5,492 nucleotides of DNA from Escherichia phage lillemer. Position 1 is the first letter of the stretch. The number at the start of each line of letters is the position of its first letter. A model generated the notes under the pieces. The model made no database searches. It saw only the letters and a list, made by a program, of their open reading frames with translations, and had not been told where the DNA came from. The translations under genes and the position numbers were made by a program. Below are positions 1 to 5,492 of the stretch, one piece after another. The DNA lies in sequence record MN850599.1; one strand, 5' to 3'.

Positions 1-845
1 CCATGTTCCGGTACGAAGAAGCGAGGAACAGAGTGACGGAATGTTTGCTGGACGCGGCCAGAGAATTGACCTAATGAAGTTTGGTCAGTGCCGTCGATAT
101 CATAGCCAGAAGCCCAGAAGTTAGAGCGCATAAGCAGAAGAGGACGATTATCAGCGTCATAGTGAGTTTTGCCACCGAACGAAGAGATTACGTCACGGTA
201 ACGTTGCATGAAGTAGTCACGCTCTTGGTCAGTGTGAAGTTGGGCGTAGGCAGCTTGAAGACCCATGATATCAATGGAGGTAGCGCCAGTAGTCATAGCG
301 CGGGTAATTTCCGTTTGAGGAGGAAGAGGCGCAGACCAGATGTTTTTTAAGTGACAGCAGCGGAAGCCGTGACGACGGTCGTCGTCGTTTAAGTTAGATG
401 GGTTTGCCTCAGTACGGTCAGCCATCCAAGGAGCTTTGAAGTAGTTATTGTAAATATTGAGATAGCCTTGGTGCAGGAACTTGGGAACCTTGCCGTCAGC
501 AGAAGGGATTACACCAAGATAAGAAGCACTGTCGACATATTCGCCAGTGGTTACAGGGTTAAGAGATGCGGCAGCAACGCCAGTTTTCATAAATTGAATC
601 CATGCATCGCCATAGATATGACGGTGTGGAATGTAGAAAGTGAAGTAATCAACAGTTGAGTCAATAGCCAGGCCGCGACGCAGAGGGGATAAGCGTAAAG
701 CACCAACAGCGTCAAGCTGGAAAGAATCACCAGCGATAACAGGGGTCCATGATGCGACTTTAAGGCGACCAATAGCGCCAGTGTTGAAGACCAGATGTGA
801 TAAATCAATTGCATCACGAGAGGCAGAAGTTTGAACATTAGACAT
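1..845 (-). CDS. F: Major capsid protein F, N-terminal segment (partial; starts at ATG 845..843 and runs off the window start)
   Basis: ATG at 845..843 preceded by AAGGA about 8 nt upstream. Hand translation gives MSNVQTSASRDAIDLSHLVFN..., resembling recalled phiX174 F N-terminus (MSNIQTGAERMPHDLSHLGF). Codons at the window start (plus 3..35) read ...HSVPRFFVPEH, which abuts the start of the C-terminal segment at the other window end. Not in the ORF track, consistent with a frame that has no stop before the window edge. Only the two ends were translated by hand, not the interior. Confidence 0.85.
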   Translation of the reverse strand, partial: MSNVQTSASRDAIDLSHLVFNTGAIGRLKVASWTPVIAGDSFQLDAVGALRLSPLRRGLAIDSTVDYFTFYIPHRHIYGDAWIQFMKTGVAAASLNPVTTGEYVDSASYLGVIPSADGKVPKFLHQGYLNIYNNYFKAPWMADRTEANPSNLNDDDRRHGFRCCHLKNIWSAPLPPQTEITRAMTTGATSIDIMGLQAAYAQLHTDQERDYFMQRYRDVISSFGGKTHYDADNRPLLLMRSNFWASGYDIDGTDQTSLGQFSGRVQQTFRHSVPRFFVPEH

Positions 846-863
846 TTTATATCCTTAAATAGA

Positions 864-881
864 GTGGGACCGTGGTCCCAC
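864..881 (-). terminator. J-F intergenic stem-loop (7-bp GC-rich stem GTGGGAC/GTCCCAC, 4-nt loop) followed by T-rich tract; candidate T_J-like terminator or mRNA-stabilising hairpin
   Basis: Viral strand reads TAA(J stop)-CCTTCTAT-GTGGGAC-CACG-GTCCCAC-TCTATTTAAGGATATAAA-ATG(F). Inverted repeat seen directly. A GC-rich hairpin occupies the same J-F position in phiX174 (recalled). Confidence 0.55.
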
Positions 882-889
882 ATAGAAGG

Positions 890-976
890 TTAGAATTGTG
901 AGCCGCCAACGTACCAGAGGCGGGAGCCTTTCTTGTTGCCAGCGGAGCCGCGGCGATATGATTTGCCTTTAGCCAT
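890..976 (-). CDS. J: Small basic DNA-binding/packaging protein J (28 aa)
   Basis: Hand translation from ATG 976..974: MAKGKSYRRGSAGNKKGSRLWYVGGSQF, stop TAA at 892..890. Very basic, C-terminal RLWYVGG motif matches recalled phiX174/G4 J. Start overlaps D stop as TAATG. AAGGA SD about 10 nt upstream. Confidence 0.85.
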   Translation of the reverse strand: MAKGKSYRRGSAGNKKGSRLWYVGGSQF

Positions 977-1256
977 TACATGATTCCTTGTGCACGGAGT
1001 TTAGCGCGGATGTTGTCTTCGGCACCTTCGAGGACGTCTTTACAGCCGGCGCGGACACGGAGAACGAAAGCGAAGAGTTCGGAAGCCTTAACTGGGGATT
1101 CAACGCCATTGACGATGTTTTCAGTAAATTCGGCTCCTTCCATGATGAGACAAGCGGTCTGGGTGTTGACCGGATGAACGTAGTAAGCGATAACAGCAGA
1201 AATAAATTCAACAGGAGCAGGAAAGCGAGGATACCCGACAAAGTCCAGTGTTCCAT
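969..1256 (-). CDS. E: Lysis protein E (95 aa), embedded in gene D in a different frame
   Basis: Track ORF 969..1313, trimmed to internal ATG at 1256..1254 (GAGG about 11 nt upstream). Product MEHWTLSGILAFLLLLNLFLLLSLTTFIRSTPRPLVSSWKEPNLLK... has an N-terminal hydrophobic helix and an RP(L)VSSWK segment like recalled phiX174 E. Lies wholly within D (+ J start) in an alternative frame, as in phiX174. Confidence 0.85.
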   Translation of the reverse strand: MEHWTLSGILAFLLLLNLFLLLSLTTFIRSTPRPLVSSWKEPNLLKTSSMALNPQLRLPNSSLSFSVSAPAVKTSSKVPKTTSALNSVHKESCNG

Positions 1257-1431
1257 ATACGCAGGCCTCGACAGCGCGGCGGGCGCGGGAGCGGTCAGTA
1301 GCAATCCAGACACGGTCGCCAGTTAAGAATTCGAAGTCGTCTTCGGTAAGGTCGAGGACGGATGAGGCTTGAATCATTTTGATAGAAGCGATTGCAGTTT
1401 GAAAGGCTACAGCAGATTCGTTGGAGTTCAT
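976..1431 (-). CDS. D: External scaffolding protein D (151 aa)
   Basis: Track ORF 976..1431. Strong similarity to recalled phiX174 D (ASIKxIQASxVLDLTEDDF, VWIATDRSRARR, YGTLDFVGYPRFPAPVEF, YYVHPVN, ACLIMEGAEFTEN). ATG 1431..1429 overlaps C stop (ATGA). AAGGA SD about 9 nt upstream. Confidence 0.93.
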   Translation of the reverse strand: MNSNESAVAFQTAIASIKMIQASSVLDLTEDDFEFLTGDRVWIATDRSRARRAVEACVYGTLDFVGYPRFPAPVEFISAVIAYYVHPVNTQTACLIMEGAEFTENIVNGVESPVKASELFAFVLRVRAGCKDVLEGAEDNIRAKLRAQGIM

Positions 1432-1688
1432 TTAGTATTTCCTTTGTTGTTACGGGTTGTTTGTGTGGGGGATAGTACCCCCCGTTCGATTAATATGTCA
1501 ACTAAAGATTGTTTGCCATGTACGAAATGTTCTTCGTAGCGGAACCAGTCCTTAAGAAGAGCGCCCAGCATGTTAAGCCATTTTTCCTCGTCAAGGGCAT
1601 CAGCCTTAGAGAGTATTGCGAGTTGATGGCGAAAGGTTGAGAAGTAAGACCCTCTCGAGCTCTTTAGTGCAAGATTGAATTTCTTCAT
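1428..1688 (-). CDS. C: Protein C (86 aa; switch from dsDNA replication to ssDNA synthesis/packaging)
   Basis: Track ORF 1428..1706 begins at a GTG; the ATG at 1688..1686 gives [58 protein letters not shown]..., closely matching recalled phiX174 C. The ATG overlaps the A stop (ATGA), as in phiX174. Confidence 0.88.
1472..1501 (-). promoter_or_regulatory. Candidate sigma70 promoter pD (TTGACA-N18-TACTAT) inside gene C, upstream of D
   Basis: Viral strand: TTGACA (plus 1501..1496), 18-nt spacer, TACTAT (plus 1477..1472), about 40 nt upstream of D ATG. Same hexamers and position as the phiX174 pD promoter as recalled. Confidence 0.6.
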
Positions 1689-1770
1689 TTTCCACCAGCA
1701 GTCCACTTCGATTTAATTCGTAAGCAAGCAGTAGTAATTCCTGCAGCAGCAAGGTAGTTTTTGGTTTCAT
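1606..1770 (-). CDS. K: Protein K (54 aa), overlapping the A/C junction in a third frame
   Basis: Hand translation from ATG 1770..1768: [54 protein letters not shown], stop TAA 1608..1606. ELLLL(V/A)YELNRSGLL and LSPSTN-like segments match recalled phiX174 K. ATG overlaps B stop (TGATG). Too short to appear in the ORF track. Confidence 0.7.
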
Positions 1771-2710
1771 CAGAAGTATCCATGAGTGTTAATTTCTGAG
1801 TCATTGAAGCGATAAAATTCTGCAGGTTGGACGCTCCGATTGTTCGGGTCAAATCGCGCATAAATTTTAGCAGATTGGTCGTTACAGGTTGCGCCGCCAA
1901 AACGGTCGCGACAGATGCTTTTGCCAGCCTCGATTTCAGCTCTTTCTTGGCGTTCTGCTTCAAGACGTTGTTGAACGGGGTCGAGTCGTAGCCCAGCTGG
2001 GTCAGTTGGATCAATGTTTCGGCGGTCAGGTGCGCCATTGATAACATCTTCATCCCGAAGTTGCGGGACATTCGGATTCTGAATAGTTTGGTTGGTAGTA
2101 GAGATATTTTGGTCTTGAGTGATGCGTTCCATTCTTTATTCCCTAGGCCTTTTGCGGCCATATCAATATCAGATTTTTTGTTAACGTATTTAGCGACGTA
2201 GAAGCCGACAGCCATATACGAGGTAGCTTTAAGGGGTTCACCCTTTGAGTCGACAGGCCAGAGCCAGCCAGCGCGCGAGAATGCGTCTTGGGAGTACCGG
2301 ACTGCGATGGGCATAGAATAGCCATAGGGCCATGTGTTTTGCAAGGAGTTTATTTGGCGATTAGTGCGTACCAGCTTACCGAAGTTAGGGTCACGAGAAC
2401 CCATAGGAAGTGTGCGCATAAGGTGCACTGCGTGGAAATGTAGACGACCGTGCTGTGTGCCATACTCTGGAACACAAAAATACTGATAGCAGTCGGCGTG
2501 TGAGTCATTAGCAGAGCGACCCTCGGCAGCAAGCACCATACGACCAATATCACGGAAGTAGTCACGAAGAGCATTGGGATTATCATAGAAAGCCTGTATG
2601 CGGTCATCGGCCAGAGTAAGAGTGTCGAATACAACATACCAGCCGTCAGTGTGGGCTTGGCGCATGGCATTCATCAGTCTTTGAACGGTAAAGCCACGGC
2701 GTGATTTCAT
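1685..2710 (-). CDS. A*: A* (in-frame internal initiation product of gene A, 341 aa)
   Basis: Internal ATG at 2710..2708 (A codon 204, MKSRRGF...) with GAGG about 9 nt upstream; same position and context as the phiX174 A* start as recalled. Expression not verifiable from sequence. Confidence 0.55.
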
Positions 2711-3319
2711 GGTGGATTCCTCAAGCATTTTTGAGCATTCATCCTTAATACCCTTCGCCTTTGCATAGTTGTAATCGGCGCGGATATCTTTAAGGGGTCG
2801 TTTAGATACGAGCTGTGACCAATGGGTGTTAACAGGTTTATCATAAAGCATACTCCAGTGGGCGTTACCTTTAGGGGTGTGGTCTATAGTGTTATTAATA
2901 TCAAGTTGTCCGAGCACGTCGTAACATTCTTGCAGTTCGTCAGCAATGGCGATGACTGTAAGGCGGTAATCCTCACCGATTTCATCAGAGAGGCGTAATT
3001 CGTTAGGGGCAGTTTGAGGGATTGGTTTACGGCGAATGATATCGTCCAGGGTAAATGTGTCAGGGTATTGAATGAGTTTTGGGTTGTGTCCTTTTTGATG
3101 GGCACGATAGGCAATAGTAGTAGCCAGTTGAGAATTTGGGTTCATGTAGAAGTCTTGAGTTTCAGGGCAGCGACGGATTCCGTTTGTCCAGTGAGCAAGA
3201 ATTTCTTCGAGTAATTTTACGCGAGTGTTTACCTGTTTCCAGATACGGAGGTTTGGGGATTGCGTGAGTGTCGACATGCCAGCGGCTTCGACGAGGGGTT
3301 TGATGAGTTCTACAGACAT
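1685..3319 (-). CDS. A: Replication initiation protein A (HUH rolling-circle endonuclease, 544 aa)
   Basis: Track ORF 1685..3319. HUH motif GRLHFHAVH (H294/H296) and catalytic tyrosine pair [10 protein letters not shown] (Y374/Y378, codons at plus 2198..2200 and 2186..2188). C-terminal two-thirds closely match recalled phiX174 gpA. ATG 3319..3317 with GGAGG SD. Contains the 30-nt origin. Confidence 0.95.
1770..2132 (-). CDS. B: Internal scaffolding protein B (120 aa), encoded inside gene A in a different frame
   Basis: Track ORF 1770..2132: ...PQLRDE..., EAERxxRxEIEAGKS, RFGGATC(N/D)DxSAxIYARFD, [12 protein letters not shown]-terminus match recalled phiX174 B. ATG 2132..2130. Stop TGA overlaps K ATG. 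Confidence 0.9.
2315..2344 (-). promoter_or_regulatory. Candidate promoter pB (TTGCAA-N18-TATTCT) inside gene A, upstream of B
   Basis: Viral strand: CTCC-TTGCAA-AACACATGGCCCTATGGC-TATTCT-ATGCCCATCGCAGT. Positionally equivalent to the recalled phiX174 region TTGCAAAATACGTGGCCTTATGGTTACAGTATGCCCATCGCAGT, about 190 nt upstream of B. Hexamers are weak; assignment is tentative. Confidence 0.35.
2879..2908 (-). other. Viral (+) strand origin of rolling-circle replication (30-nt gpA recognition/nick site) inside gene A
   Basis: Reverse complement of plus 2879..2908 is CAACTTGATATTAATAACACTATAGACCAC, identical to the conserved phiX174/G4 origin as recalled. Expected nick between G and A of CAACTTG/ATATT, i.e. 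between plus 2902 and 2901 on the '-' strand. Encodes [10 protein letters not shown] of protein A. Confidence 0.85.
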
Positions 3320-3324
3320 GTTAA

Positions 3325-3346
3325 AGCCTCCGTGTTAATGGAGGCT
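3325..3346 (-). terminator. H-A intergenic stem-loop (AGCCTCC / GGAGGCT, 8-nt loop) containing the gene A Shine-Dalgarno; T_H-like terminator / 5' mRNA hairpin
   Basis: Viral strand: AGCCTCC-ATTAACAC-GGAGGCT-TTAAC-ATG(A). 7-bp stem seen directly. phiX174 has an analogous hairpin (GCCTCCAAATCTTGGAGGC) immediately upstream of the A start (recalled). Confidence 0.6.
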
Positions 3347-3376
3347 ATTAGATAGGATTTATGATGTGATTGTCAA
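3347..3376 (-). promoter_or_regulatory. Candidate sigma70 promoter pA (TTGACA-N18-TCTAAT) between H and A
   Basis: Viral strand: TAG(H stop)C-TTGACA-ATCACATCATAAATCCTA-TCTAAT, immediately followed by the hairpin. Perfect -35 hexamer (plus 3376..3371), 5/6 match at -10 (plus 3352..3347). Same place as phiX174 pA (recalled). Confidence 0.5.
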
Positions 3377-3377
3377 G

Positions 3378-4415
3378 CTATTTGCGAGACATGTTGGAGC
3401 CTACTCCGTCGGCTTTACCATCTTTCCAATAATTGTTCCAAGTGTCAGACACAGCTTTATCAACGCCGCGAAAATAATCAACAATACCAGAAGATGCGTC
3501 ACTAATGACATTTGATACGTCCTTGGCGGTTTTACCGACCTGTGATGATGCATAACGTGAGTTTTGGACTTCCTGTTTTGAGCGGTCAGTTTCTACATGG
3601 GTGCGTTCAGTGTTAGCACGAACAGCATCAATATCAGCGCCGACTTTTCGAGTAAGTTCTTGGATTTGAGCGTTAGTAAAGTGTTGTCCTGAGGTTTGAG
3701 CCTGAGTAAGCATTTGGCGCATAATTTCAGAAGTTTGTTGTTGTTTGGTGAGGCTTGTGTTTTCGAGAATAGCGCCAACACGTGACATAGATTCCTTTTG
3801 GTTGTATTGGAGCATTTCGTTTTGAGCATATACAGAGTCCTTAGTATTCATGCGTGATGTGGCAGACTGGATACCAGCGATATCCTTTTGGGTGTCGTTT
3901 TGCATCTTAGCGATTTTGACTTGGTTGTCAAGTTGCATTTTGATTAGTTGTTTTTGGTTTTCAAAACCAGCGTCAACCATACCAGCAGAGGAAGCACCAG
4001 CGCCAGCGCGTTCCCACGGGTTGAGCTCGGGGAACGCAGAAGCAAGGTAATCTTTAGTATCCTTGCCTTTATCAGCAGCAGATTTGCCACCGAGGCCAAT
4101 TTTGTTAAGAAGAGCTTGTTGAACAGCAGAGCCGCCAGCTTGTAGAGTACCATCGAGAAGTCCTTTGCCAGCATCCTTAAGTGAGGAGACGGCAGATTCG
4201 GTAAATGTAGGAGCCGCCTGATCAGGGCTAGGCGGGTTAGGTCCCTGCATAACAGATTGAATACCTGCATTGTCAGCAGAGATAGTAGTTTCAGGGGTAG
4301 CGAAGAGGCCTTGTCCAGGAGTTGAAGGGGCGGCTTGTTTATTGCCGCCCATCAGTTTGGACATTAGACCGCCAGCAAGAGTAGAGGCGATGCCGCCAGC
4401 GATTGCACCAAACAT
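3378..4415 (-). CDS. H: DNA pilot / minor spike protein H (345 aa)
   Basis: Track ORF 3378..4415. N-terminus [19 protein letters not shown], central Gln-rich heptad region ([22 protein letters not shown]...[10 protein letters not shown]...) and C-terminus DTWNN(Y/F)WKDGKADG(V/I)GSN(M/L)SRK match recalled phiX174 H. ATG 4415..4413 with AAGGA SD spanning the G stop codon. Confidence 0.95.
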
Positions 4416-4424
4416 AGAGATTCC

Positions 4425-4949
4425 TTATTTGAGAGGTTGCAGAGTTGTGATTTCTTGGTCAACCTGATTAATTGAGATGGAGCCGTACACAGTATCGGCG
4501 ACAAATGATTTCGCAATAAGGGCAATACCTACATAAACAGGATTGCCAGAGCGAGAAAGAGTAGAGACAGTAACGCAGTCCTTAACGGACAGAGTAGTAT
4601 CAGATGATTTAAATTCCAACGGATAATAAGTAACCGCAGAGGCGGGGATAGCCGTTGGGACAGTAGCAGATTCAAACCGACAAAGAACAGGTACGAGGCT
4701 GCCGATAGTAGAAAGTGAGGCAGCAACAGAAACGACCTGATTGTCGGTATGAGAGGAGTTGTCGATAGCGACAACAGCAGAGATACCGCCTGGAGAAGTC
4801 AGGGCGGTAGTAGTTAGATTCACAAATAGATTGTCACGCGCAACGGTTGGCGTATTAATAATAGGAGCCAACGCGGCGGGAGTGACAGCCTTTGTGATAG
4901 TAGTAGTAAATTGAGGAGAATTGTGTTTAGTGACAAAGTTCTGGAACAT
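4425..4949 (-). CDS. G: Major spike protein G (174 aa)
   Basis: Track ORF 4425..4997 begins at a TTG. The ATG at 4949..4947 is preceded by TAAGGA about 9 nt upstream and gives MFQNFVTKHNS..., matching the recalled phiX174 G N-terminus (MFQTFISRHNS). VVSV, RFES..VP, VKDCVT, NxVYVG and C-terminal LQPLK are also conserved. Confidence 0.9.
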   Translation of the reverse strand: MFQNFVTKHNSPQFTTTITKAVTPAALAPIINTPTVARDNLFVNLTTTALTSPGGISAVVAIDNSSHTDNQVVSVAASLSTIGSLVPVLCRFESATVPTAIPASAVTYYPLEFKSSDTTLSVKDCVTVSTLSRSGNPVYVGIALIAKSFVADTVYGSISINQVDQEITTLQPLK

Positions 4950-5000
4950 TTGAGTAGTCCTTATAGTTAGGTAGCTAACGCGCTTGCGCTTGTTCAACCT

Positions 5001-5036
5001 GACAGGGGGCGAAAAATTAAAATTTTTCCCCCTGTC
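5001..5036 (-). other. F-G intergenic long hairpin (9-bp GACAGGGGG/CCCCCTGTC stem plus inner A5/T5 stem); candidate complementary-strand origin / primosome assembly site or structural terminator
   Basis: Plus 5001..5036 gacagggggcgaaaaattaaaatttttccccctgtc is an imperfect inverted repeat. The phiX174 F-G spacer has an analogous AAAAATTTTAATTTTT-centred hairpin (recalled), and this spacer hosts the PriA site in phiX174 and the primase origin in G4. Not followed by a U-tract, so not a canonical intrinsic terminator. Confidence 0.55.
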
Positions 5037-5048
5037 ACGTTATAGGCT

Positions 5049-5492
5049 TTAAGAAGTCATGATGCTATCGCGTGTGGTCGGGATATGTCGATATACAGTG
5101 ACATTGTATTTAGCCTGAGCATTCCAGTGAGTTAATTGAAGTGATTGGAAGCATTCGTCGTATTTTTTATGGTCAATCAGTACACGGTTTTCCATGTTGC
5201 CAGTTGGACCATTTTGGATGAACGGGAAGCCTTGAAGGTTGTGATATTGTCCATCAACGTAAGAAGGATGATAGCGATACCATTGCCCTTCGGCAATTTT
5301 GATTTTTTCAGTAGAGCCAGCAGCGCCACGGAAGAGAGTTTTCATTTCGATTTCGCGAGGCGGTAAGTTACCGTAAAGAGTTGGATCACCCGCAAGGTCA
5401 GTATAGTTTAGTGCGCCTTTGCCGACGAGATAGTGAGTTTCCTCAGTGCAGGTAGGCGGGAAGCGTACGAGTTGAAGAGTCATAATAACGCC
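5049..5492 (-). CDS. F: Major capsid protein F, C-terminal segment (partial; 5' end of this segment runs off the window end)
   Basis: Track ORF 5049..5483 (MTLQLVRFPP...YRHIPTTRDSIMTS) matches the recalled phiX174 F C-terminus (TMFTLALVRFPP...TVYRNLPTTRDSIMTS). Frame stays open to 5492 (upstream codons G-V-I). Stop TAA at 5051..5049. Confidence 0.92.
   Translation of the reverse strand, partial: GVIMTLQLVRFPPTCTEETHYLVGKGALNYTDLAGDPTLYGNLPPREIEMKTLFRGAAGSTEKIKIAEGQWYRYHPSYVDGQYHNLQGFPFIQNGPTGNMENRVLIDHKKYDECFQSLQLTHWNAQAKYNVTVYRHIPTTRDSIMTS

Follow-up and report, generated by a model that had tools for sequence, protein, structure and literature searches.

The window, that is, the whole stretch of 5,492 nt that was analysed, carried the full Bullavirinae set of eleven genes (A, A*, B, K, C, D, E, J, F, G and H) in canonical order on the '-' strand, and it opened and closed inside gene F, as an earlier note on this DNA had claimed. 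The 5' part of gene F, which encodes the major capsid protein, was located at 845..1 (-), with the start codon at 845..843 and a Pfam Phage_F score of 505.9 bits, and the 3' part at 5490..5049 (-), with the stop codon at 5051..5049. Joined, the two parts encoded 428 aa, in agreement with the 1287-nt F genes annotated in phages Lilledu, MG1, Lilleto and Lilleput. At 976..890 (-), a DNA-binding core protein of 28 aa is encoded by gene J, which scored 36.2 bits against Pfam Microvir_J and whose ATG overlapped the stop codon of D (TAATG). Gene D, at 1431..976 (-), encodes the external scaffolding protein of 151 aa (Pfam gpD, 268.8 bits), and nested in its +1 frame is gene E for the lysis protein (95 aa; 1256..969, -), which has Leu21 rather than Pro21. 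Gene C (86 aa) was found at 1688..1428 (-) and gene K (54 aa) at 1770..1606 (-), with 135.1 bits against Pfam Phage_C and 60.7 bits against Pfam Protein_K, respectively.

The 544-aa initiator of rolling-circle replication is encoded by gene A at 3319..1685 (-; Pfam Phage_GPA, 204.5 bits), and its translation showed HFHAVH and YVAKYVNK, the motifs of an HUH, double-tyrosine initiator. Gene B (internal scaffolding protein, 120 aa; Pfam Phage_B, 150.2 bits) lay inside A in another frame, at 2132..1770 (-). An in-frame internal start within A gave A* (341 aa, 2710..1685, -), whose first 17 residues are shared with A* as annotated in G4 and ID2, with a difference at the next residue (Q for T); judged by homology, A* is probably expressed. 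Gene H (minor spike/DNA pilot protein, 345 aa) at 4415..3378 (-) scored 466.5 bits against Pfam Microvir_H, and gene G (major spike protein, 174 aa) at 4949..4425 (-) scored 105.7 bits against Pfam Phage_G. Altogether, nine of the ten distinct products passed their Pfam gathering scores. The exception was E, whose C-terminal domain (Pfam Microvir_lysis) reached 19.7 bits, under the cut-off of 25.

Coding sequence covered 5280 of 5490 nt, and the remaining 210 nt fell into four spacers, all of which have counterparts in relatives; every stretch thus belongs to known genes or short spacers, as had been stated before. Neither tRNAs nor Rfam families were detected in the window, and there were no long repeats beyond the F-G hairpin described below. 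A hydrophobic ORF of 98 aa at 883..587 (-) was rejected as a gene, having no ATG in Lilledu, SECphi17 and the metagenomic genome L028 and stops in ID2 and phiX. Among 15 other unannotated ORFs of at least 60 aa, on both strands, 14 had stops in at least one relative; the remaining one, at 3948..4145 (+), showed no stop in the aligned part.

Replication origin and spacers

The viral-strand replication origin was located at 2908..2879 (-) as an exact 30/30 match (CAACTTGATATTAATAACACTATAGACCAC), with 0 expected by chance. By analogy with phiX174, the nick would follow base 7 and so separate 2902 from 2901. The phiX174 record places its origin at 4306. No stable fold was found in the origin region.

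The J-F spacer (846..889, -) contained a GC-rich hairpin at 881..864 (GTGGGACCACGGTCCCAC), a T-rich tail and then the F ribosome-binding site AAGGA, and the hairpin with its tail may serve as a terminator after J. Relatives carried one of two stem alleles, each self-complementary, that differ in length by 7 nt; the window differed in this way from Lilledu, and SECphi17 had the short allele. The H-A spacer (3320..3377, -) held a TTGACA box that may be the promoter of gene A, together with a hairpin (AGCCTCC-N8-GGAGGCT, 3346..3325), the 3' arm of which contains the A ribosome-binding site. The DNA fold of this spacer gave z = -3.1, and the same hairpin was present in Lilledu, MG1, Lilleto and Lilleput.

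The F-G spacer (4950..5048, -) formed a long hairpin from an inverted repeat with arms at 5041..5023 and 5014..4996, and its DNA fold of -21.4 kcal/mol corresponded to z = -4.2. In RNA this hairpin could terminate transcription after F, and in viral ssDNA it could serve as the origin of the complementary strand. The spacer was almost identical to that of ID2 and similar to that of phiX174, unlike that of G4, which does not align, and the G4 primase-origin core CCGCCGTCCCTACTGCAAAGCC was absent from it with up to 3 mismatches allowed. G4 is characterised by a complementary-strand origin in this spacer that primase recognises, which is not a formal criterion of Gequatrovirus; ID2, which this spacer without the G4 core matches, is itself classified in Gequatrovirus.

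Window ends and the genome unit

Both the 5' and the 3' end of the window read CC, and the longest terminal overlap was 2 nt, so that 5491..5492 repeats positions 1-2 and the true circle is 5490 nt. When the window was circularised with this 2-nt overlap, one uninterrupted F of 428 aa was obtained. Removal of 5 nt also left an F frame, of 427 aa, and no junction-spanning ORF of at least 380 aa appeared with 0, 1, 3 or 4 nt removed. Without correction, the joined ends gave 10 nt (ACGCCCCATG) between the flanking anchors, versus 8 nt (ACGCC[A/G]TG) in each of the five relatives compared (Lilledu, Lilleto, Lilleput, MG1 and SECphi17). With a single CC the junction would read AACGCCATGTTCC, and the 5-nt overlap was rejected by the junction in these same relatives. 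Furthermore, the alignments of the 5490-nt circle to MG1 (5490 nt, a circular record) and Lilleput (5490 nt) contained no gap column.

One could suppose that the genome is incomplete or defective, either because the circle really has 5492 nt and F is frameshifted, or because the contig is short of a few bases. F is indeed broken when the ends are joined without overlap, as had been predicted for an exact 5492-nt circle, and a 2-nt overlap is expected by chance once in 16. Against this, precisely the 8-nt junction that the 2-nt overlap predicts is present in each of the five relatives, the alignment to two genomes of 5490 nt is free of gaps, and terminal redundancy also occurs in other assemblies of the clade, measuring 55 nt for both SECphi17 and L030 and 30 nt for L028. 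We therefore consider a defective or truncated genome very unlikely, and because of the shared junction and the gap-free alignments the genome is complete. These results supported the earlier proposal of a 2-nt redundancy, a circle of about 5490 nt and a 428-aa F. The description "near-complete, circularly permuted" was right as to permutation, with the break inside F, and wrong as to completeness, the window being one complete copy (5490 nt plus 2 nt). An exact 55-mer of the window start had no match in IMG/VR. The molecule is presumed to be circular and single-stranded from the permutation and from family membership.

A piece of a larger molecule, such as a prophage in a host genome, a concatemer of tandem copies or a contig trimmed of its host flank to give this window, was also considered, as some other Microviridae (gokushoviruses) integrate and sequence outside the window is not visible from the window alone. 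However, the window spans exactly one genome unit plus 2 nt, and the contig that encodes the identical lillemer proteins (see below) is likewise 5492 nt long. No match was found in 5,426 complete E. coli genomes, no locus with a G homologue in 185,579 species genomes, and no integrase gene in the window. Such an origin appeared even less probable than a defective genome, and the absence of host flank and cargo noted earlier held true.

Relatives and placement within Bullavirinae

Lillemer is a published cultured phage from Danish wastewater with E. coli K-12 MG1655 as host, recorded as MN850599 with 5492 bp, a GC content of 47.1% and 6 CDS (Olsen et al. 2020, PMC7552041, Table 1); the GC content of the window was 47.14%. 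The A, G, H and D proteins of the window were letter-for-letter identical to lillemer proteins QHR69593.1, QHR69595.1, QHR69594.1 and QHR69591.1, among which A, G and H carry the label 'hypothetical protein'. The assignment to MN850599 is based on these four exact proteins, on the 5492-nt length of the contig that encodes them and on the GC content. The genome is already known, and the window holds no new system. The lillemer sequence has a 2-nt duplication, opens in F and runs in reverse orientation, and automated annotation of such a record would be expected to split F.

In rotated alignments, whole-genome nucleotide identity was 98.16% to Lilledu, 97.65% to Lilleto, 97.10% to Lilleput and 95.88% to MG1, and megablast gave 96.7% over 97% of the window for Lilleen. 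Lilledu (98.2%) was the nearest genome compared. Gene order was alike in Lilledu, Lilleto, Lilleput and MG1, which differed from the window by 101-226 substitutions, and 19 positions were private to the window among these relatives. Under a species criterion of at least 95% genome-wide nucleotide identity, as used by Olsen et al. (PMC7552041), lillemer, Lilledu, Lilleto, Lilleput and MG1 form one species group, with SECphi17 as its sister. SECphi17 (LT960607) shares the G type and the Leu21-type E with lillemer, and at 93.54% nucleotide identity it falls under the species line. Only 5-6 CDS are marked in each of the Lilledu, Lilleto, Lilleput and MG1 records, so that annotation is missing there for B, K, E, J and A*.

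With regard to the subfamily, the window showed a small genome within ~5.3-6.1 kb, the gene order with overlapping B, K and E, genes D and G, and the 30-nt origin. D and G are not known from gokushoviruses. The order of the genes and the 30-nt origin are identical in G4 and ID2, and amino-acid identity to these phages was 85% for A, 83-87% for D, 76-80% for C, 74-76% for K, 72-76% for H and 67-69% for B. F was only 67-68% identical to G4/ID2, lower than to phiX (74%) or alpha3 (72%), and G was 43-44% identical to G4/ID2. Identity of G to every other type was ~40-44%, roughly equidistant, and this G is a type specific to the clade: just 6 phage records had a G with at least 90% identity, and for the remaining 563 identity was under 60%. 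The label "G4-like" given earlier thus suited A, B, K, C, D and H, which are nearest to G4/ID2, and did not suit F, G or the F-G spacer. DNA identity to Gequatrovirus (G4, ID52, ID2/talmos) was ~80-81% over only 72-80% of the genome. Olsen et al. (PMC7552041) gave 59-68% similarity, yet termed these phages gequatroviruses, and NCBI places Lilledu in unclassified Bullavirinae.

The resemblance to phiX174 raised the question whether the window stems from the phiX174 spike-in used in sequencing or from a closely similar phage. PhiX174 belongs to the same subfamily, is similar in size, has the same eleven genes and origin and a similar F-G spacer hairpin region, and contaminates many assemblies, including six 5386-bp 'plasmids' (Vibrio, Cellulomonas, Edwardsiella, E. 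coli). However, phiX copies matched only 31% of the window at 76.6% identity (megablast), protein identities to phiX174 were 41-80% (A 72%, B 58%, G 41%), J has 28 aa here versus 38 aa in phiX174, and the genome is 5490 rather than 5386 nt. A spike-in, which the earlier note had also doubted, was the least probable of the alternatives considered and can practically be set aside.

Taken together, with a probability of about 97%, the window is the complete genome of lillemer, a circular ssDNA coliphage of the Bullavirinae with a lytic, non-integrating life style, given as the reverse complement of the viral strand, opened in F and with 2 nt of assembly redundancy. By analogy with phiX174 and G4, H would pilot the ssDNA into the cell, where host enzymes would synthesise the complementary strand, probably from the F-G hairpin. 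A would then nick the 30-nt origin within its own gene to start rolling-circle replication, F/G procapsids would be scaffolded by B and D, the DNA would be packaged by C and J, and E would be expected to lyse the host. Lysis is the least certain of these steps, because E stays under the Pfam cut-off and has no Pro21.

Lysis protein E without Pro21

Residues 19-29 of E read FLLLSLTTFIR, compared with LLPSLLIMFIP in phiX174/ID21 E, so that Leu21 replaces Pro21. The earlier statement that the window holds no novel system was correct for gene content and overlooked this feature. E matched the solved E chains 8G02_B and 8G01_B without gaps (E-value ~3e-9), and, like phiX174/ID21 E of the MraY-E-SlyD complex (8G01/8G02), it has an N-terminal membrane helix and lies in the +1 frame of D. 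Leu21 is shared by the window and eight related genomes, and Pro21 was present in 4 reference phages, 17 IMG/VR genomes and 18 E-like library representatives. The P21A substitution abolishes lysis in ID52 E (PMC11126076); for the requirement of P21 in phiX174 E that paper refers to Witte et al. 1997. The E of the SECphi17 clade departs from the phiX174 paradigm at the one residue reported to be indispensable.

A constraint test indicated purifying selection on the membrane segment of E despite Leu21. If E is the working lysis protein, as plaque-forming isolates suggest, the proline is not a universal requirement. We see about an even chance that the lillemer/SECphi17 lineage, including the metagenomic genomes L028 and L031, has a remodelled E whose proline-free helix would bind and block MraY in another geometry, perhaps with no need of SlyD; a target other than MraY seems less likely. 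SECphi17 is widely used as a model ssDNA phage in anti-phage defence screens, and an E without Pro21 bears on the use of E-like peptides as MraY-directed antibiotics. The E changes at residues 21-29 were synonymous in the overlapping D. The exception to this pattern was L19F, which is also an Ala-to-Ser change in D, and L19F in E also arises when phiX174 adapts to slyD-deficient hosts.

Gene content and closure of the circle

All eleven canonical genes were found in canonical order on the '-' strand, as the earlier note had claimed, and the ORF list showed a single large coding strand ('-') which includes A (544 aa), H (345 aa), D (151 aa) and B (120 aa). The '-' strand carries A (3319..1685, identical to QHR69593.1) with an in-frame start for A* inside it (2710..1685), B (2132..1770), K (1770..1606), C (1688..1428), D (1431..976, identical to QHR69591.1), E (1256..969), J (976..890), F (845..1, then 5490..5049), G (4949..4425, identical to QHR69595.1) and H (4415..3378, identical to QHR69594.1). 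A* shares residues 1-17 with the A* annotated in G4 and in ID2, and differs at residue 18. Nine of the 10 distinct products passed their Pfam gathering scores, and E fell below (19.7 bits versus 25). The 30-nt viral-strand origin CAACTTGATATTAATAACACTATAGACCAC was located inside A (2908..2879) with 0 mismatches, and the A translation contains the HUH-like HFHAVH and YVAKYVNK sequences. Coding sequence occupies 5280 of 5490 nt. GC content was 47.14% over 5492 nt; Table 1 of Olsen et al. 2020 (PMC7552041) gives MN850599 as lillemer, a Gequatrovirus of 5492 bp with GC 47.1% and 6 CDS. The database label of lillemer A, G and H is 'hypothetical protein'. The records of its close relatives Lilledu, Lilleto, Lilleput and MG1 list 5-6 CDS each with B, K, E, J and A* unannotated, and Lilledu H is annotated at 328 aa versus 345 aa elsewhere.

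The window opens and closes inside F. Its longest terminal overlap is 2 nt, CC at both ends, and the 144-aa ORF 5483..5049 in the ORF list is the 3' portion of a longer frame that continues beyond the window end. The ends were joined with 0 to 5 nt removed, and the junction-spanning F was checked each time. An intact F was obtained only with 2 nt (428 aa) or 5 nt (427 aa) removed; the exact 5492-nt circle yielded no intact F across the junction, confirming the earlier statement that it would break the frame. Between the flanking anchors, Lilledu, Lilleto, Lilleput, MG1 and the sister phage SECphi17 (5/5) have 8 nt (ACGCC[A/G]TG) and the joined ends of the window have 10 nt (ACGCCCCATG), so the 2-nt removal was chosen over the 5-nt one. 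Joining with the 2-nt overlap, the terminal CC being counted once, indeed gave a single uninterrupted 428-aa F in a 5490-nt circle. When rotated, this circle aligned with MG1 (a 5490-nt circular record) and Lilleput (5490 nt) with 0 gap columns. Judged from the relatives' junction and these gap-free alignments, the genome is complete and the extra 2 nt are an assembly redundancy. The gene set and permuted circle of the earlier 'near-complete' genome thus stood, and 'near' had to be dropped. Like redundancy at the ends was seen in other clade assemblies (55 nt in SECphi17; 55 nt in L030 and 30 nt in L028, two metagenomic relatives).

Directly evident from the genome are the presence and intactness of the genes, the exact origin, the A sequence motifs and the conserved hairpins. 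All functional roles are carried over from phiX174/G4, with which the genome is fully syntenic. By this analogy, H would pilot DNA entry, host enzymes would make the complementary strand, and A would nick the origin for rolling-circle replication; B and D would then scaffold F/G procapsids, C and J would package the DNA, and E would cause lysis.

Relatives and mosaic ancestry

Megablast against 50,697 phage records identified Lilledu (98.1% identity), Lilleto (97.6%), Lilleput (97.1%), Lilleen (96.7%), MG1 (95.9%) and SECphi17 (93.5%). The top matches all had E. coli hosts and came from wastewater, sewage or sludge, and none lay outside Bullavirinae/Microviridae, in support of the proposed kinship. 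Among 5,426 complete E. coli genomes, none matched the lillemer sequence. A search with its G protein across 185,579 species, each represented by one genome, gave no locus, and only one JGI metagenome contig matched. Neither the window nor the searches gave any indication of integration or flanking host DNA, and the gene set and spacers account for the genome, which bears out the earlier view that it holds no host flank, cargo or novel system. Lillemer is an already known, already published phage genome without cargo. A phiX174 spike-in was rejected, in agreement with the earlier note, since the only matches in the plasmid collection were 5386-bp phiX174 copies at 76.6% identity over 31%. These are six PLSDB 'plasmids', assigned to Vibrio, Cellulomonas, Edwardsiella and E. 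coli and as long as phiX174, whose matches fall in the D-to-A region of the window (76.6%); they are presumably spike-in contamination deposited under the wrong label.

Protein comparison showed that A, D, C, K, H and B are nearest to G4/ID2. Amino acid identities to G4/ID2, phiX174 and alpha3, respectively, were 85%, 72% and 44% for A; 83-87%, 80% and 71% for D; 76-80%, 67% and 45% for C; 74-76%, 57% and 44% for K; 72-76%, 70% and 59% for H; and 67-69%, 58% and 28% for B. However, F is nearer to phiX174 (74%) and alpha3 (72%) than to G4/ID2 (67-68%), and G lies at nearly the same distance from G4/ID2 (43-44%), phiX174 (41%) and alpha3 (39%). 'G4-like' therefore describes those six proteins, but not F, G or the F-G spacer, which is without the G4 core. 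In the phage collection, G reached at least 90% identity in only six records, and the other 563 were below 60%. In the metagenomic relative L031, a lillemer-like backbone goes with yet a different G type (44% identity). By these F and G identities, the ancestry of lillemer is mosaic. NCBI classifies Lilledu as unclassified Bullavirinae, and Olsen et al. (PMC7552041) named these phages gequatroviruses despite 59-68% similarity.

Spacers, hairpins and unannotated frames

The J-F (44 nt), F-G (99 nt), G-H (9 nt) and H-A (58 nt) spacers all have counterparts in relatives, and the hairpins of the J-F, F-G and H-A spacers are conserved. No tRNAs or Rfam families were found in the window, nor any repeats except the F-G hairpin. 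When folded as DNA, the F-G spacer (4950-5048) yields a long hairpin of -21.4 kcal/mol (z = -4.2), which we infer to be the complementary-strand origin and, as RNA, the post-F terminator. ID2 has an almost identical spacer, and phiX174 a similar one in the hairpin region, whereas the G4 spacer is longer and unlike it. The G4 stretch CCGCCGTCCCTACTGCAAAGCC, which we take to be the primase-origin core, was searched for in lillemer and was absent. These features point to complementary-strand priming of the phiX type, not the G4 type, within an otherwise G4-related replication module.

The post-J hairpin (864-883, in the J-F spacer) has two alleles among very close relatives, GTGGGACCACGGTCCCAC in the window, Lilleto and Lilleput (G4 has a CCGCGG variant) and GGGGCTTCGGCCCC in Lilledu, SECphi17, ID2, L028 and phiX; MG1 carries a hybrid of both. 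Base pairing is retained in each allele, and the allele difference explains the 7-nt length difference between lillemer and Lilledu.

Sixteen unannotated ORFs, 60 aa or longer and from both strands, were compared across relatives, and 14 were rejected as genes since one relative or more has stops in the frame. ORF 883..587 had no stops within the lineage, but was rejected because its start codon is missing in three relatives. The aligned part of ORF 3948..4145 (+) was without a stop in any genome compared. A 78-aa ORF in an alternative frame of H (3593-3829, -) was open in all lillemer-like and G4-like genomes compared, and its phiX174 counterpart has two stops in the aligned part; the open frame is probably a compositional effect.

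The Leu21 form of lysis protein E

E is the single unusual feature of this genome. It reads MEHWTLSGILAFLLLLNLFLLLSLTTFIRST... in lillemer versus ...LAFLLLLSLLLPSLLIMFIP... in other Bullavirinae. Pro21 was present in phiX174, G4, ID2 and alpha3, in 17 further IMG/VR Bullavirinae genomes and in 18 E-like representatives from a 1.84-billion-protein library. Lillemer E aligned without gaps to the E chains of the solved MraY-E-SlyD complex (8G02_B and 8G01_B; E-value about 3e-9) with Leu at residue 21, indicating that this position is the true counterpart of Pro21. In ID52 E, P21A abolishes lysis (PMC11126076), and P21 is required in phiX174 E (Witte et al. 1997, as cited in PMC11126076). A 2025 paper puts the bent shape that E adopts in the MraY groove down to the conserved helix proline, which it numbers Pro-19 (PMC11812184).

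The Leu21 form also occurs in Lilledu, Lilleto, Lilleput, MG1 and SECphi17, and in three metagenomic genomes: L030 (90% nucleotide identity), L031 (78-81%, with a different G type and E residues 1-31 the same as lillemer's) and L028 (a sister lineage, 86%). The 107-aa E of L028 (about 4975-5295, in the frame inside D) has its helix proline at position 14 instead (LVFLPLLSLFLLL). Eight related genomes beside lillemer share the same helix (codons 17-29, about 1170-1208). The nucleotide changes behind P21L, S22L, L23S, I25T, M26T and P29R in E leave the D protein unaltered, and over this stretch D is invariant across genera; E L19F is also an Ala-to-Ser change in D. When phiX174 adapts to slyD-deficient hosts, this very substitution (D A79S / E L19F) arises together with R3H (PMC3324380 Table 2). 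Lillemer E has both His3 and Phe19, in common with those mutants.

Variable D wobble positions were then counted among the nine Leu21-type genomes. Only 6/31 were variable under E residues 1-31, whereas 37/51 were variable in the D-only part of the gene (Fisher p = 3e-6); under the E C-terminus, 40/61 varied. Smaller tests, within the clade and versus L028, went in the same direction (p about 7e-4). On these counts, the proline-less helix looks to be under selection rather than in decay, although another constraint on the same DNA stretch may account for the conserved D wobble sites. A function for the Leu21 E is putative and a lead for follow-up; in the literature library searched, no paper names SECphi17 together with MraY. 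Many 'representative' E-like proteins in the 1.84-billion-protein library are phiX174 E joined to unrelated tails (for example ...DRKSGSAGMPRPISYAVFCLKKKK), apparently through read-through in chimeric contigs of spike-in and adapter.
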